Assembly: GCA_011045955.1 (NCBI GenBank)
Contig: DSBV01000095.1
Coordinates: forward strand, 285-64,284
DNA from: Bacteroidales bacterium
GTDB taxonomy: Bacteria; Bacteroidota; Bacteroidia; Bacteroidales; Tenuifilaceae
Reading direction: 5' to 3'
Length of the DNA: 64,000 nucleotides
The position numbers were made by a program, and so were the translations under genes. Positions 14,746-20,961 of this stretch are shown here, piece after piece (the first letter of the stretch is position 1; every line of letters begins with the position of its first letter). A model generated the notes under the pieces. That model was not told the DNA's origin, did no database searches, and worked only from the letters and a program-made list of their open reading frames with translations.

Positions 14746-14766
14746 AAAAAAACCGGGTAAACCCGG
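14746..14766 (-). terminator. Intrinsic terminator after the Cache/GAF/PAS gene
   Basis: Minus strand CCGGG-TTTA-CCCGG-T7 directly after the stop at 14769. Confidence 0.65.
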
Positions 14767-14768
14767 AT

Positions 14769-17585
14769 TTAAATTTGATTTTCGGATAGCAAATGGCTAA
14801 CGTTGAAAGCAATTTTCATGATCTTGACTACATTCCCTTCAGCATCCCTTATTGGGGTGTAGGTTTCGTAGAATAGGTAGGTTTTATTGTTGATGCTGAA
14901 CTTTGAGGTTTCCTTTCTCACAATGCCATTATTAAGATCATCCCAGAACTGTTTGTAGTTTTTACGCTGTTCCTCGGTAAATTCCATTTGGTAGGAGTGG
15001 TGCTTACCAATAACATCATTGGCGTTAAGGTTAAGCAGCTGAAGGTAGGCCTCGTTAATAAAGGTGACGTTTCCCTCAGGGCTATACTCAATAACGTAGG
15101 CGGAGTCGTTAATTGCCTTGTAGAGATTTTCAAGTTCAATCACTTTTCTCTGAAGGTCGCGCTGAAAGGTTTCTTCCTTTTCGGATTTCTTTGAAATTTC
15201 CTCTTCCATCATCTTGGAAGCGGTAATGTCGCGGGTTATGCCAAAAGTACCAATGGTTTCGCCATGGGAATTTTTCAGGGGTAGTTTTGAGGTTTCAGCC
15301 CAGGTTACTCTACCGTCGTTCATTACTTCCTTCTCAACAATACCGATAATTGGGGTATCGGTTTTGATAATTCGTTGTTCATCCTCGTAAGCTGGGCGGG
15401 CATGCTCCTCGGTAAAGAAGTCGAAGTCGGATTTGCCAGTAAGTTCCTCTTGCTTTGTACATCCAAAGAACTCGAGGGTTGATTTACTTACCTTGATGAA
15501 ACGGCTTTTTAGGTCTTTAAAGTAGATTTTATCAGGCAGGTAATTAAGTAATGAGTCCAAAAGCGATTTTTCCCATTCCAGTTGTTTCTGGTTTTCCTCC
15601 ATCTCGGCAGTACGCTTCTCTAGTTCTTCCTTAATGGTTTCCAACTCTTCGAGGTTTTGCCTAACCTCTTCCTCCTGGGCTTTCATTTCCTCGGCCTGTT
15701 GCTGGGTTTTCTCCAGCAGTTCGGCTGTACGGATATTGGTTCGAACCGATTGAATGGTTTGGCCAATGCTTTGGGCAACCCTTTCAACAAATTCAATTTG
15801 GAAATTCTCGAACTCTGAGAAAGAAGCAAGCTCAAGCACTCCATAAATTTTATCCTCAACCTTAAGAGGTACAATAAGCAAGTTACGGGGTTTGGCTTCG
15901 CCAAGTCCCGATGAAATGGTTATGTAGTTTTCAGGAATGTCTTTTAAGTAGATGGTTTGTTTTTCAAGGGCACACGTTCCAACCAATCCTTCGCCTAGTA
16001 AAATTTGTTTTTTTATGAATTTTTGGCGGTTATAGGCGTAAGCGGCAGTAAGTTCAAAGTAGGGCTCATCAGTGTTCTCGTTGATGTAAATGAAAAGTCC
16101 GCCCTGATTTGCATTTAGAATACCAACCAGATTTTTAACAATATTGGCACTGAGAGCCTCTAAGTTATCGTTGTTTTGGCGAAGTATATCGCCAAATTTG
16201 GCCAATCCCTCATTAACCCATCTTTGGTTTTCCTCGTTGCGCTGTCTGATTAGCGCCTCTTCCCTTGCCTTCCGAAGATTCTCATTCATTTCAATCAGCG
16301 ACTTGCCCAAAACATCCTCATCGCTGAGGAGATCAAGTGAGGTGTCGTAATTACCCATGCCAACCTGTTTTGCGAATTCGGTTTTTCTGTAAAGGCCTTC
16401 AACGGTTTTGTTCAGGTGGGTAATCATGGTGCCTATTTCATCATTGTTGTCAATCTCAACAATCATGCTGTTGTCAACATGGCCCTTAGAAAGGCGTTCT
16501 AGATTTTGAGTTACTTTAGATATTGGATTGATAAGGAATTTTAGTGTCATGAGGTAAATGAAACCGGAAAGCATTAAAATGCCAATTAAACCAACAGTGA
16601 GGGTAGTCCAAAAAACATGACGGGCCTCGGCCAGAATTGTTTCGTGTGGGGTAATCAGAACAAACGACCAGTGCTGAGGGCATTTACCAACTGAAATGGG
16701 TCGGAAAGTAAAGTATGATAGCTTCCCGTTGATATCTGTTGCTTCAAATTCAATGGGTTCGCCATTAATTACCTTATCCTGAACGCCATGCAAGGTAAAT
16801 ATGGATTCGTAGTAAAACAGGGCATCGTCGCCAATCAAATCCTTATCGGGGTGGGCAATGAACTTAAACTGAGGGGAAATGATAAATGCGTAACTATTCT
16901 TGTAGGGAACAATGTTTTTGACAACCTGATGGTAGTTTGAAAGCGGGATATCGAGCCCGGCTGCACCAGCAAAATTCCCATCGATAATGCAAGGGGCAAT
17001 AACGCTGGTCATCAGAATATTTTCGGTTTGACCCTCATAGTTATCAAAGTAAGGCTCTTCCAAACTTTCGGATTTGTTTGCTTTTAATGCCGCGTAAATT
17101 GCCGATGCTTCAGTCTTTTCAGTTTTTATGGTGTTGGTAAGTATTCTGCCATTTTCGCGCCAGGCATAGTTTTGAATTCGGCCGTGTTCGTATGTGTATC
17201 CGGGTTCAACAAATTTAAGTTCCCAGCTATCCCACACGGAAAGTAAATCGGGGTATTGCTCAAGTATTTTGGTGTAGAGATTGTTGTAATCCTGTATATT
17301 TGATGTATTCCCCTCTTTTATGGTTACTGCCATTGACGAGGCAATGGTGCGTGCAATAGACATACCCATTTCAAGCATTGCCTCAAATTTATTAACCTCT
17401 TTGTCAGCTATAAGGGAAACGCGCGATTTGGCTGTTTCCATGGACAGTCGGTTAAACCTGGTGCTGTTTAGGAAAAGAAGAAAAAAAAGAATAAGAGACG
17501 AGGTTCCGATGAATAGAAAAATAATTTTTTTCTTTAACGACAAATTCTTAATTGAAGTTAAAAGTTTAATCCCAGAAATCTTCAT
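14769..17585 (-). CDS. Membrane sensor TM-Cache-TM-HAMP-GAF-coiled coil-PAS-PAS with no catalytic output domain
   Basis: Two TM helices flank a Cache-like region (EPYFD; YAFIISPQFKFIAHPD). Then HAMP (PISKVT..L..LSKG...DEIG), GAF (GEGLVGTCALEK..LLIVPL..IYGVLELASF) and two PAS domains (LLNYLPDKIYFKD; VIEYSPEGNVTFINE). The protein ends right after PAS2. Confidence 0.85.
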   Translation of the reverse strand: MKISGIKLLTSIKNLSLKKKIIFLFIGTSSLILFFLLFLNSTRFNRLSMETAKSRVSLIADKEVNKFEAMLEMGMSIARTIASSMAVTIKEGNTSNIQDYNNLYTKILEQYPDLLSVWDSWELKFVEPGYTYEHGRIQNYAWRENGRILTNTIKTEKTEASAIYAALKANKSESLEEPYFDNYEGQTENILMTSVIAPCIIDGNFAGAAGLDIPLSNYHQVVKNIVPYKNSYAFIISPQFKFIAHPDKDLIGDDALFYYESIFTLHGVQDKVINGEPIEFEATDINGKLSYFTFRPISVGKCPQHWSFVLITPHETILAEARHVFWTTLTVGLIGILMLSGFIYLMTLKFLINPISKVTQNLERLSKGHVDNSMIVEIDNNDEIGTMITHLNKTVEGLYRKTEFAKQVGMGNYDTSLDLLSDEDVLGKSLIEMNENLRKAREEALIRQRNEENQRWVNEGLAKFGDILRQNNDNLEALSANIVKNLVGILNANQGGLFIYINENTDEPYFELTAAYAYNRQKFIKKQILLGEGLVGTCALEKQTIYLKDIPENYITISSGLGEAKPRNLLIVPLKVEDKIYGVLELASFSEFENFQIEFVERVAQSIGQTIQSVRTNIRTAELLEKTQQQAEEMKAQEEEVRQNLEELETIKEELEKRTAEMEENQKQLEWEKSLLDSLLNYLPDKIYFKDLKSRFIKVSKSTLEFFGCTKQEELTGKSDFDFFTEEHARPAYEDEQRIIKTDTPIIGIVEKEVMNDGRVTWAETSKLPLKNSHGETIGTFGITRDITASKMMEEEISKKSEKEETFQRDLQRKVIELENLYKAINDSAYVIEYSPEGNVTFINEAYLQLLNLNANDVIGKHHSYQMEFTEEQRKNYKQFWDDLNNGIVRKETSKFSINNKTYLFYETYTPIRDAEGNVVKIMKIAFNVSHLLSENQI

Positions 17586-17594
17586 AATATCTGA

Positions 17595-18440
17595 TTAATA
17601 AAAACTTTGGTACTTTTTGATACGAGGATTTACACACATTACGGGTATTTCAAGTTTTGCCTCCCGCTTGCTATTGAGGAAATCATCATACTTGTCCGAC
17701 ATGATAAGAACAAGGTCGGCCTCAATGGTACGGCCAAACCTGAAAACTTCCTCTTCAAACGTTCCCTTTTTCTTGGCGGTTTTAATACCGTAAACAATAT
17801 TAACCCCATCGAGCATTTTTTTGGTGAAGTATATATTATTGGCCAGTTGTTTCTTTTTGCCATCGTCGGTTAGGTAAGGCTTAATGAGGTTAACGTTACA
17901 CTTATAGTACTTAGCAAGGTAGATAATCCAATGAACAGCTTCCTTGAACTTCCTGTCGTAGTCCACGGGAATTACAATTTCAATATAGTGTGAGTGGATT
18001 GGGGCCTTGCTGACTATAATGAAGGGAAGGGTTGTTTCCTTAAAAAATAGGTTTTTGAGGTAATTAGAAATGCGATGAACTTCATTACCAATTTTATAGG
18101 CGTAATGAGCAACAATAAGGTTGACATTTGCTGCGGGTATTAACTCTCGGATGATACGTTTGGGATAGCCTTCTAAGACAAATGTTTGGGGTTTAAATCC
18201 GTATTTAACTTCGAGTTCTGAGGCAGTCTTCTCAATTTTGGCATTATAGGTTTCAATTTTTTTAAAATTCACCTTACGGTATATGGTGTCAATAATCCAT
18301 GAACGTGGAATAATGTGTAGTAATATGATTTCATTGCCTCCAGCTTTTGCGAGCTGAAGAGCATGTTGAAAGGCAATTTCGGAACCTTCGGTAAAATCCC
18401 AGGGAACCAGAATGATTCTTTTAATATTAATATTATCCAT
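17595..18440 (-). CDS. Tandem universal stress protein (Usp), degenerate nucleotide loop
   Basis: ILVPWDFTEGSEIAFQHAL..A, second domain IVIPVDY, ends IPVMCVNP. Confidence 0.8.
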   Translation of the reverse strand: MDNINIKRIILVPWDFTEGSEIAFQHALQLAKAGGNEIILLHIIPRSWIIDTIYRKVNFKKIETYNAKIEKTASELEVKYGFKPQTFVLEGYPKRIIRELIPAANVNLIVAHYAYKIGNEVHRISNYLKNLFFKETTLPFIIVSKAPIHSHYIEIVIPVDYDRKFKEAVHWIIYLAKYYKCNVNLIKPYLTDDGKKKQLANNIYFTKKMLDGVNIVYGIKTAKKKGTFEEEVFRFGRTIEADLVLIMSDKYDDFLNSKREAKLEIPVMCVNPRIKKYQSFY

Positions 18441-18535: not shown

Positions 18536-20011
18536 CTACAAAGATGTATCATTTTCTAATTCGCTCATCCAGCGCTTAAGATTTTTGAGCTGAACATCCT
18601 TGTTTACATTCCTTAATCTACGGGCTGTTTGGGTAAAATACTGGTGTTTCTGTATGAAATCAATTTGTATCGAATTCCAGTCGTGGAGCGAACCCACCAT
18701 GCCATGCTCGTGGAGCTCCTTGTAAAGAGCATTCGATACAGGTATAAAGTCGGTTCTTCCCAAGTAATCCAAATCGGCATCGCAAATAATTTCCTCAAGG
18801 ATGTTTTTGGGTTTTGGAGGTAACTTGGTAGCCATAATAATTTCAGCAACCCGGGTAATTTGCTCTGGAGTATAGCCGTAGCGGGGCAATATTTCATGCG
18901 CCATTTTCACGCTCATTTCCTCGTGCGTTGCATAATCAATTAAGTGGCCCATATCGTGGAACAATGCAGCGGTTCTAACCAGAAGCATGTCTTCGTTTGG
19001 TAGGTTTTCGGCCCTGCCAATTAGTTCGACCTGAGTATAAACGTCAATGGTGTGCTTTAAATTGTGGTAGTAGAGGTTTTTTGGAAGGCCCTTTTCCAGT
19101 TTCTCGAGAACAAATTCCTCCAGATCGGCTAACCGTACAAGCTGAAGTTCAACCCTAAAGTCATTATTTGGTGTATAACTGTTGGAGTCGGAGAATTTTG
19201 GCAGGAATCCTTCCACAAAGTACATGTTAACATCGCCCTTGTTCTTGATTGGAATCTTACCCTGGAACTTGCAATTGAATAAATCGCGAACAACCAGATA
19301 GGTGTTTTCTGAAATGTTGATTTTTCCGGGCTCGCTTGCCGATTCCATTCGGCTAGCAATGTTTACTGTGGTTCCCCAGATGTCGTATGATAACTTGTTA
19401 CGGCCAACAATTCCGGCAATAACGGGTCCGGTATCGATACCAATTCTTAGCTCCCAGATTTCTTTGTCGGAATTGAGTTGCTGGTTTAATTTTTTCATGC
19501 AGCCCATCATCTCAACTGCCGCTGCAACAACTTCAAAAGGATTTGTTCTATTTGGATGTGGAAGGCCACCGGCACACATATAGGCATCGCCTATGGTCTT
19601 AATTTTTTCGATCCCATACTTTTCCACAATGCTATCGAATTCAAAGAAAAGCCTGTCGAGTTGGTCAATCAGAGAATCGGCATTTATTTCATCGATTATT
19701 CTGGTAAAGCCCTGAATATCGGCAAAGAGAACCGTAACCATCTGAAATTTTTGTGCATCAACTTTACCCTGGTCAATTAGTTCTTTGGCCTTTTCGCGGG
19801 GCAAAACTCGTGAGAGCAGGTTCTCGGTTTTCTGTCTTTCCCTGAGTAATTCCTCAGTTCTAACAAAGAGTTTCTGCTGTAGGGCATAACTCTTTTTGGT
19901 GTAGTAGTAACGTGCATAGAGAATCAAGGTAGCAAAAGTTGCTACTGCTAATAAAGCAAACGCTATAAAGGTTGAAAGGAAAGCCATTTGGTAAAACACA
20001 AAAAAATTCAC
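18536..20011 (-). CDS. Membrane-anchored class III adenylate cyclase fused to an HD phosphohydrolase domain
   Basis: One TM helix, a coiled coil, cyclase motifs VLFADIQGFT, KIKTIGDAYM, RIGIDTGPVIAG, YDIWGTTVNIASRME, then HD motifs YHNLKHT, AALFHDMG, HEE, CDADLDYLG. The start may be ATG 19987. Confidence 0.9.
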   Translation of the reverse strand: MNFFVFYQMAFLSTFIAFALLAVATFATLILYARYYYTKKSYALQQKLFVRTEELLRERQKTENLLSRVLPREKAKELIDQGKVDAQKFQMVTVLFADIQGFTRIIDEINADSLIDQLDRLFFEFDSIVEKYGIEKIKTIGDAYMCAGGLPHPNRTNPFEVVAAAVEMMGCMKKLNQQLNSDKEIWELRIGIDTGPVIAGIVGRNKLSYDIWGTTVNIASRMESASEPGKINISENTYLVVRDLFNCKFQGKIPIKNKGDVNMYFVEGFLPKFSDSNSYTPNNDFRVELQLVRLADLEEFVLEKLEKGLPKNLYYHNLKHTIDVYTQVELIGRAENLPNEDMLLVRTAALFHDMGHLIDYATHEEMSVKMAHEILPRYGYTPEQITRVAEIIMATKLPPKPKNILEEIICDADLDYLGRTDFIPVSNALYKELHEHGMVGSLHDWNSIQIDFIQKHQYFTQTARRLRNVNKDVQLKNLKRWMSELENDTSL

Positions 20012-20157: not shown

Positions 20158-20961
20158 ATGACAAATATGACTGCTAAAAAATCAATTTTGGTTCCTACTG
20201 ATTTTACTGAGGTTGCATGGTTTGCACTACAGCATGCCATAAGGGTTTCTGAAGTTGTAAAGGAGCCAATTCACATCCTACACTGTGTTCCGGAGCCAGA
20301 AAAACTTGCTGAAGTTGAAAACCGAATGGCTGAACTAATTGATTCTGTAAGGAGTAAATACGCTGTAACGCCAAAATCGATAGTTAAGGTAGGTAACTAC
20401 ATGACCGACATAGCATCAACCGCCGATGAAATAAATGCAAGTATGGTAATTATGGGCTCATCAACCGTAAAAGAGATGGATGAGCACAAGGTTTCGTGGG
20501 TGCTAAAGCTAATTACCGGTTGCAAGGTCCCTTTTATTACCATACAGGAACCACCGGTTAATAAGCGTTACGACGATATTGTTTTCCCCGTCGATTTCAC
20601 CCTTGAAAATAGGGAAAAACATGAATGGATATCATATTTCAGCGACTACTACCTCTCCCGTTTTCACATCATAAAGCCCAACACATCGGACCCCAGGCAA
20701 ATGGCACAAATTGATATAAACCTGGCTTCGGCCAAGAGATTTTTAGATGAAAGGGGCGCCAAGTACGTGGAGTACACCGTTCCCGGCATTAAGAAGTATG
20801 AGGAGGAGGTGCTCGATATGGCAGTTAACATAAGAGCTGACTTAATAATAATAATGACTACTCCCACCGACAAAGAAGGAAAATTTATTGTTGAGCCCGA
20901 GGAGCAGTACATTCTGGCCAATGCAAGGCATATACCTGTTATGAGCATCAATCCCCGATAA
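20158..20961 (+). CDS. Tandem universal stress protein (Usp), degenerate nucleotide loop
   Basis: ILVPTDFTEVAWFALQHA, IVFPVDF, ends IPVMSINP. Confidence 0.85.
   Translation: MTNMTAKKSILVPTDFTEVAWFALQHAIRVSEVVKEPIHILHCVPEPEKLAEVENRMAELIDSVRSKYAVTPKSIVKVGNYMTDIASTADEINASMVIMGSSTVKEMDEHKVSWVLKLITGCKVPFITIQEPPVNKRYDDIVFPVDFTLENREKHEWISYFSDYYLSRFHIIKPNTSDPRQMAQIDINLASAKRFLDERGAKYVEYTVPGIKKYEEEVLDMAVNIRADLIIIMTTPTDKEGKFIVEPEEQYILANARHIPVMSINPR

Follow-up and report, generated by a model that had tools for sequence, protein, structure and literature searches.

Combined synthesis and removal of a nucleotide messenger by one polypeptide is documented for CAPE (COMBINED AC with PDE; AC, adenylate cyclase; PDE, phosphodiesterase), which Marchantia polymorpha shares with other streptophytes that have motile sperm (PMC5159850, PMC8115329, PMC11032487). 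Both the AC and the PDE activity of CAPE have been shown with recombinant protein (PMC5159850). A synthase and a hydrolase for one messenger also share a chain in GGDEF-EAL, GGDEF-HD-GYP and Rel/SpoT proteins, and in Rel/SpoT the hydrolase is likewise an HD domain. The gene described here lies in a 64,000-nucleotide stretch of DNA, referred to as the window, from a member of the Tenuifilaceae (Bacteroidales; contig DSBV01000095.1 of assembly GCA_011045955.1). It encodes a class III nucleotidyl cyclase domain followed by an HD-superfamily domain. The reading that we favor, to which we assign a probability of about 0.55, is that the product is a membrane-anchored homodimeric adenylate cyclase whose HD domain hydrolyzes 3',5'-cyclic adenosine monophosphate (cAMP) to 5'-AMP.

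CAPE is the closest functional precedent for this protein, because a class III AC domain and a phosphodiesterase domain of HD fold are joined in one chain. However, CAPE is eukaryotic and carries a bona fide class I PDE N-terminal to its cyclase, whereas in the window protein the cyclase comes first and is followed by an HD domain of ~200 residues that fails the class I PDE model. The window protein is thus not a member of the CAPE type, and the likeness would be functional at best. The class IIIa ACs, such as the mammalian C1/C2 enzymes and Rv1625c/Cya of Mycobacterium tuberculosis, share with it the six catalytic residues and a helical pre-catalytic segment, but the window protein has one transmembrane helix instead of a six-helix membrane bundle, no sensor, and an additional C-terminal HD domain. 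GGDEF-EAL, GGDEF-HD-GYP and Rel/SpoT proteins differ from it in their messengers and in their catalytic families, and its HD domain has no GYP motif.

The gene is an uninterrupted open reading frame (ORF) of 491 codons with a GTG start, although an in-frame ATG at codon 9 makes the start codon uncertain. A homologue with 94% identity (P0001) is likewise 491 residues long. Its parts are as follows.

18536..20011, minus strand: the whole gene, comprising a transmembrane helix, a long helix, a predicted class III adenylate cyclase and a putative HD hydrolase (ORF list, Pfam, AlphaFold2).
19907..20005, minus strand: single N-terminal transmembrane helix, about residues 3-35 (Kyte-Doolittle; helix 2-69 in the model).
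19763..19906, minus strand: long helix or coiled-coil linker with a cyclase-transducer-like end, ENLLSRVLPREKAKEL (helices 2-69 and 72-81 in the AlphaFold2 model).
19208..19762, minus strand: class III nucleotidyl cyclase catalytic domain, residues 84-268 (PF00211; phmmer against the PDB; residue conservation).
18551..19165, minus strand: HD-superfamily domain, residues 283-487 (PF01966 at 38.8 bits; conservation; AlphaFold2; Foldseek; profile against the PDB).

Pfam assigns residues 84-268 to Guanylate_cyc (PF00211; E 1.4e-53, 181.7 bits against a cut-off of 21.9, model positions 1-183) and residues 318-413 to HD (PF01966; E 1.3e-9, 38.8 bits against a cut-off of 22); NCBIfam adds nothing beyond generic sub-threshold matches. 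The AlphaFold2 model of the full-length protein, built from a 28-sequence alignment, has a predicted local distance difference test score (pLDDT) of 87 and a predicted template modelling score of 0.78. It consists of a continuous helix from residue 2 to 69, a helix from 72 to 81, an alpha/beta cyclase fold from 87 to 269 and an all-helical HD domain from 283 to 487. The only hydrophobic stretch is N-terminal, at about residues 3-35 (Kyte-Doolittle windows above 1.6 occur only at residues 1-35), and the basic residues of RYYYTKK come after it, which predicts a cytoplasmic location for the catalytic part. The N-terminus is a membrane anchor only, without a sensor domain. In alignments, the linker segment ENLLSRVLPREKAKEL falls on the helices that precede the catalytic domains of AC8, AC5 and AC9, and its end presumably corresponds to the cyclase transducer element of class IIIa/b cyclases.

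All residues expected of an adenylate cyclase are found in the cyclase domain. FADIQG begins at residue 96, KTIGD at 138, YDIWG at 209 and NIASR at 217. The closest PDB sequences identified by phmmer are mammalian AC8 (1.6e-59), and also AC5 and AC9; mycobacterial Rv1625c-type chains match at ~1e-38 (7e-39). In alignments with AC8 and AC5, FADIQGF corresponds to the FAD(V/I)xGF and IGDAY to the ILGDCY of the C1 domain, so that D98 and D142 coincide with the metal aspartates of C1. KTIGD, YDIWG and VNIASRM correspond to KTIGSTYM, YDIWG and VN(L/V)ASRM of the C2 domain, which places K138 and D210 at the adenine-specifying lysine and aspartate and N217 and R221 at the transition-state asparagine and arginine. 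D98, K138, D142, N217 and R221 are invariant, and D210 is nearly so, in an alignment of 28 homologues with 51-79% identity. A Lys/Asp pair as opposed to Glu/Cys(Ser) separates adenylate from guanylate cyclases, a rule that comes from mutagenesis of the mammalian enzymes. Because the pair is present here, adenosine triphosphate (ATP) is predicted as the substrate and cAMP as the product; on these residues it is very probable that the cyclase part makes cAMP from ATP. Since the six catalytic residues are all on one chain, the enzyme is expected to work, like Rv1625c, as a homodimer whose two sites are symmetric, in keeping with what is established for class III cyclases.

The HD domain carries the motifs YHNLKHT (from residue 315), FHDMGH (351), HEE (363) and CDADLDYLGR (410), and the metal-binding tetrad H320, H352-D353 and D411 is intact. 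Among 147 representatives that are mutually at most 50% identical, the tetrad together with H316 and E364 is conserved at 95% or more. Conservation of at least 90% is found for H316, H320, E335, H352, D353, G355, E364, D411, Y416, G418, R419, D421, E432, W445, H456, T460 and R467, and the C-terminal block Y416, G418, R419, D421, E432, W445 and H456 is specific to this HD subfamily. The near-invariance of the tetrad speaks for an active metal site and not for a decayed sensor. The isolated domain was modeled as an all-helical fold with a pLDDT of 87. The original prediction, made from the DNA alone, had described the 18536-20011 frame as a transmembrane helix, a coiled coil, a cyclase and an HD domain, and had named the metal aspartates, the NxxxR motif, the Lys/Asp pair and the H...HD...D signature. 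The frame and its parts were borne out by the ORF list, Pfam, hydropathy and modeling, and every quoted motif was found at its expected position. An HD-GYP-type cyclic di-GMP phosphodiesterase was considered as an assignment for the HD domain and discarded, since no HD-GYP family was among the Pfam and NCBIfam matches and no GYP motif was visible by eye.

The fusion was searched for among 5.8 billion proteins, and residues 282-491 served as the HD-only query. More than 100 clusters at 50-94% identity have the Guanylate_cyc plus HD composition; the fusion is therefore widespread and not rare. Its members come from Tenuifilum, Williamwhitmania, Labilibaculum, Marinifilum, Ancylomarina and many uncultured Bacteroidales, and are named generically in the databases as "adenylate/guanylate cyclase domain-containing protein" or "HD domain-containing protein". 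The HD region alone retrieves 3741 representative clusters at E <=1e-3 and 562 at E <=1e-30. In an even sample of 301 Bacteroidota genomes from 144 genera, 105 genomes and 70 genera have the HD family, and 185 genomes encode class III cyclases.

A Pfam scan of the representatives shows with what the domain is combined. The commonest architecture among the top matches is Reg_prop/Y_Y_Y-TM-cyclase-HD (TM, transmembrane), a protein of ~1200 residues. The Reg_prop/Y_Y_Y sensors of many relatives are large and periplasmic and, like REC or MASE2 in others, precede a shared core of transmembrane helix, cyclase and HD. Further cyclase-linked forms are TM-cyclase-HD, REC-cyclase-HD, MASE2-cyclase-HD, HD-cyclase and HD-PAS-cyclase. 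The domain is also joined to cNMP_binding (cNMP, cyclic nucleoside monophosphate), as HD-cNMP_binding, HD-cNMP_binding-SpoIIE and HD-cNMP_binding-histidine kinase-REC-Hpt. Other arrangements are HisKA-HATPase-REC-HD, HD-PAS, HD-YitT-DUF2179, a stand-alone protein of ~200 residues and HD-PycTM of ~400 residues. Split forms exist in which the cyclase and the HD domain are encoded by separate genes: a cyclase-cyclase-HD-YitT operon (L028), a TPR-cyclase gene with HD next in line (L029), a TPR-cyclase and HD-YitT in divergent orientation (L030), and a REC-cyclase directly followed by HD-YitT-DUF2179 (L035-L038). At all 10 of the non-PycTM HD loci fetched from the phylum sample, a cyclase is encoded in the same gene or within ~2.3 kilobases.

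The HD domain is thus partnered with enzymes that make cNMPs, with CAP-type receptors that bind them and with the membrane part of effectors that cNMPs trigger, which argues that domains of this subfamily deal with a cyclic mononucleotide; the kinds of partner are the strongest evidence on this point. Behind REC, PAS and kinase modules the domain also serves as the output, a position that messenger-degrading enzymes typically occupy.

Three side observations concern the same family. A YitT-family protein with five transmembrane segments is fused to the HD domain or encoded right after it, beside TPR- or REC-cyclases (L028:4847-6001, L030:3814-4999, L038:4133-5593), and DUF2179 is present in the HD-YitT fusions; the orphan YitT family is thereby linked to cyclase loci. 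The HD-PycTM proteins (L023:393-1610, L024:489-1685, L025:1327-2568) consist of an N-terminal HD domain, a Lys-rich linker and a C-terminal Pycsar-effector transmembrane domain. Several family members (P0196, P0209, P0238, P0245, P0265 and proteins of L023 and L038) give sub-threshold matches to PF24391 'HD-CE', at 21-25 bits against a cut-off of 27 and over the first 50-70 model positions.

The HD-PycTM proteins of L023-L025 match PF18967 PycTM at E 4e-30 to 8e-36 and match PADLOC PycTM models as well, in agreement with the original prediction, which likened this HD subfamily to the one joined to DUF5706/Pycsar-effector domains in Flavobacteriia. ORF sizes suggest that HD-PycTM is the form in which the family most often occurs in the phylum sample. 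Its distribution does not look like that of a defense gene, and some genomes that encode it have no class III cyclase.

The genome from which the window comes (2.77 Mb, 96% complete) encodes two class III cyclases, namely the cyclase-HD protein and a REC-PAS-cyclase, together with ten cNMP-binding proteins, and the HD family is single-copy. Neither the CpdA model NF008359 nor class II PDE gave a match in this 96% complete genome. The REC-PAS-cyclase (534 residues, C23:1400-3004, plus strand) lies outside the window. Its catalytic domain is very like that of the cyclase-HD protein and ends at the conserved 'PN' linker, the point at which HD begins in the fusion; of the two cyclases in the genome, only the window protein therefore carries an HD domain. 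Adjoining the REC-PAS-cyclase gene, and also outside the window, is a gene for a 619-residue fusion (C23:3566-5425, minus strand) of an N-terminal cNMP_binding domain (E 1e-12) with a complete lyase of the aspartase/fumarase type (Lyase_1 at E 7e-100, plus FumaraseC_C), which suggests cyclic-nucleotide control of a central-metabolism lyase.

From the observed architecture, residues, conservation, distribution and gene-context linkage we infer both enzyme activities, what the HD domain acts on and any control exerted by neighboring gene products. In the mechanism that we favor, the protein would be a sensor-less, IIIa-like class III cyclase in which the single transmembrane helix and the long helix hold two catalytic domains together. 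Each chain would contribute all six catalytic residues, giving two symmetric ATP sites that form 3',5'-cAMP and pyrophosphate (PPi). The C-terminal HD domain would be a metal-dependent phosphohydrolase from a Bacteroidota-rich subfamily dedicated to cyclic-nucleotide signaling, and conversion of cAMP to 5'-AMP would be its most likely activity. Such a protein may act as a self-limiting cAMP source that produces a local pulse or a set-point, the ratio of cyclase to HD activity probably being set through the long helix or by partner proteins.

This bifunctional reading gains support because the HD family is repeatedly fused to, or encoded beside, cyclases and is fused to cNMP_binding, because the genome has no CpdA-model or class II PDE match, and because CAPE demonstrates that an AC-PDE fusion with both activities exists. 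The family also co-occurs with class III cyclases, which are present in 82 of the 105 genomes that have it and in 103 of the 196 that do not (odds ratio 3.2, Fisher p 1e-5). The domain also resembles class I PDEs such as PDE4, PDE5 and PDE9 in its HD fold and in the YHNxxH...HDxxH arrangement. Its YHNxxH...HDxGH pattern aligns with the HNxxH...HDxxH of PDE9A (E 0.6 for the single sequence, 9e-3 for the family profile), and the top match to the class I PDE model PF00233 in the whole genome is the HNxxH...HDxxH segment of this very domain. Among PDB structures, dozens of PDE5, PDE4, PDE1, PDE2 and PDE10 entries were retrieved by Foldseek with the HD model, at E 2e-3 to 2e-2 and query-normalized template modelling (TM) scores of 0.5-0.66.

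Several results weigh against a cAMP phosphodiesterase. The PF00233 match is below threshold (14.8 bits against 24.8, E 0.03 per genome) and covers model positions 1-46 only, and an hmmscan of the protein at E <=0.01 does not have PF00233 among its matches. The Foldseek E-values and TM-scores for PDEs are not better than those for small HD hydrolases, of which 2pq7 and YpgQ rank first (query-normalized TM-scores 0.56-0.65). By profile, the nearest solved structures are not PDEs but 2pq7 (4e-9), YedJ (2e-4), BH2835 (6e-4) and YpgQ (2e-3), and the matches to 2pq7, YedJ and YpgQ span the N-terminal 105-125 positions only. In many relatives the second histidine of HDxxH is replaced by Phe or Tyr. 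The co-occurrence statistic has no phylogenetic correction and is in part trivial, since a fusion is counted under both families. Class III cyclases are missing from 23 of the 105 genomes with the family, so dependence on such an enzyme cannot hold for all members; from the ORF sizes of the HD matches we infer that these 23 mostly carry the HD-PycTM form. Metallophosphoesterases beyond those covered by the E. coli-type CpdA model may serve as cAMP PDEs in this genome, which is itself 96% complete. Finally, the full-text literature, outside which most subscription journals lie, yielded CAPE as the sole precedent and no paper on a bacterial cyclase-HD fusion, on HD-PycTM or on this HD subfamily, so that as far as this literature shows the fusion has not been described biochemically.

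Given the sub-threshold PF00233 match and the profile ranking, the HD domain cannot be filed as a class I PDE. It is ~120 residues shorter than class I PDE catalytic domains, the last histidine of HDxxH is unconserved in its family, and by eye it does not match the PROSITE-type PDE signature. The small, stand-alone HD hydrolases 2pq7 (Thermotogales), E. coli YedJ (3gw7), BH2835 (3dto) and Bacillus subtilis YpgQ (5dqv) resemble it in size and helical core but, unlike it, are not found in signaling architectures. From sequence and model comparison the domain appears to sit between the small YpgQ-type hydrolases and the class I PDE core, about as close to each, and is a relative of the YpgQ/YedJ/2pq7-like enzymes and a candidate member of that group. 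The original prediction of a bifunctional cAMP synthase/hydrolase thus stands in part: the fusion and operon links to cyclases and cNMP_binding, and the lack of recognized alternatives in the genome, agree with it, but its hydrolase half is put in question by the class I PDE threshold, the YpgQ-type neighbors and the cyclase-less genomes.

These same relatives give substance to a different account of the HD domain, which we regard as the main rival, though less likely than the favored reading. Here the cyclase would make cAMP, and the HD domain would either be a nucleotide-sensing feedback or regulatory domain with little turnover or hydrolyze something else, for example NTPs and dNTPs to release pyrophosphate, as would YpgQ, which we take to be a nucleoside triphosphate pyrophosphohydrolase acting on (d)NTPs; 2',3'-cNMPs, another cyclic or linear nucleotide, and phosphoanhydrides of the PPi/polyphosphate type are further candidates. 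The order of neighbors in the profile search (2pq7, YedJ, BH2835, YpgQ), the Foldseek ranking headed by 2pq7 and YpgQ, weak Ppx-GppA_III matches in some homologues and the 23 genomes without a class III cyclase are all consistent with this. Pycsar effectors carry a ligand-sensing domain beside their transmembrane domain, and in HD-PycTM the HD domain takes the place of that sensor. A purely non-catalytic sensor is nevertheless difficult to reconcile with metal ligands and additional His and Glu residues that are almost invariant. Housekeeping nucleotide hydrolases, for their part, are not usually found behind REC, PAS or histidine-kinase modules or beside cNMP_binding, and no alternative substrate accounts for the recurrent fusion and operon linkage to cyclases.

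Two further readings change the product of the cyclase. Synthesis of cGMP or another cNMP, with the HD domain degrading that product, is suggested by a Pfam family that spans adenylate and guanylate cyclases and by guanylate cyclases among the PDB matches (E 1e-37); however, the specificity positions hold Lys (K138, invariant) and Asp (D210, nearly invariant) instead of Glu and Cys(Ser), and the top PDB matches are adenylate cyclases, so this is improbable. Still less credible is an anti-phage cyclase of the Pycsar type (PycC) that makes a pyrimidine cNMP, its HD domain serving immunity or signal clearance. PADLOC PycC models do match the cyclase domain (best E 5.6e-14) and the same HD family is fused to PycTM elsewhere, but these matches are far weaker than that of PF00211 (1e-53) and are consistent with ordinary class III homology. 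The cyclase has the canonical adenine pair K138/D210, its gene has no effector gene next to it (the neighbors encode universal stress proteins, a receptor and Ham1), and a housekeeping synteny block of RecO, a PorZ-like protein, Ham1 and a universal stress protein is kept across the order, from 79% down to 54% identity, unlike a defense island. The Pycsar reading was rejected on the housekeeping context and the adenine-specifying residues.

Returning to the bifunctional cAMP enzyme, the genes around it may encode partners. They are listed here with the end of the presumed unit (Usp, universal stress protein).

17595..18440, minus strand: downstream tandem-type Usp, 281 residues, beginning 95 nucleotides after the cyclase-HD gene (Pfam Usp; motif scan).
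14769..17585, minus strand: dCache-HAMP-GAF-PAS-PAS receptor, 938 residues, without an output domain (Pfam).
14753..14766, minus strand: terminator-like hairpin and T-run directly after the receptor gene (consensus match only).
20158..20961, plus strand: divergent second tandem-type Usp, 267 residues (Pfam; motif scan).

A gap of 9 nucleotides separates the Usp gene from the start of the receptor gene, and the two probably share a transcription unit, of which the hairpin is likely to be the end, as judged from a consensus match only. A sigma-70 promoter scan, with a tool that contains no Bacteroidota promoters, found 20 sites against 16.2 expected in shuffled sequence; this is not above expectation and no promoter is claimed. 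The two Usp proteins that flank the cyclase-HD gene are paralogous, and the Ham1/RdgB gene comes next after the divergent one.

At least one Usp neighbor is kept in all six related loci examined. The downstream Usp is retained in L001-L005 and L007, the divergent Usp in L001-L006, and the receptor only in L001-L004; the receptor follows cyclase-HD and Usp in two related lineages only. Tenuifilum (79% identity) has the full block of Usp, cyclase-HD, Usp and receptor, as does a further Bacteroidales lineage (68%). A locus at 60% identity retains the two Usps without the receptor, and in Labilibaculum (54%) the divergent Usp alone remains. In one lineage with different surroundings, a Usp still follows the cyclase-HD gene. 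No Usp is near the more distant cyclase-HD genes of L031-L033, and the linkage is limited to the orthologous Bacteroidales clade.

Both Usps and the Cache-GAF-PAS receptor are candidate partners of the cyclase-HD protein, and the output-less receptor could be the missing sensor of the sensor-less cyclase. Mycobacterial Rv1636 is a Usp-type binder of cAMP and ATP. A corresponding role for the flanking Usps was considered and rejected: the G-2x-G-9x-G(S/T) ATP-binding motif is absent from both proteins in the motif scan, and the linkage is absent from L031-L033.

To our knowledge, cAMP signaling in Bacteroidota has barely been studied. The cyclase-HD fusion is a widespread and generically annotated architecture of which the window gene is one ordinary member; the value of the finding lies less in this gene than in the HD family as a candidate new family of bacterial cNMP phosphodiesterases. 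Tentatively, and with less confidence than we have in the bifunctional enzyme itself, the ~200-residue HD domain may represent a new and large bacterial 3',5'-cNMP phosphodiesterase family, related, in compact prokaryotic form, to the catalytic core of the eukaryotic class I PDEs and acting as the main off-switch for cAMP in much of Bacteroidota, where CpdA-type enzymes may often be lacking. Under that tentative proposal the domain would be deployed in fusion with cyclases, cNMP-binding receptors, YitT membrane proteins and Pycsar-type transmembrane effectors, and the window protein would be a minimal self-contained generator of cAMP pulses. For this organism the cyclase-HD protein is relevant in that no cAMP-removing enzyme is recognized in the genome by the CpdA or class II PDE models, despite ten cNMP-binding proteins. 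If the HD domain has another substrate, its recurrent fusion to cyclases would still need explaining. If it is a cAMP-removing enzyme, a new bacterial PDE family with thousands of members would be gained, a very common cyclase architecture would be explained, and the orphan YitT and non-defense HD-PycTM families would acquire a testable link to cyclic nucleotides.

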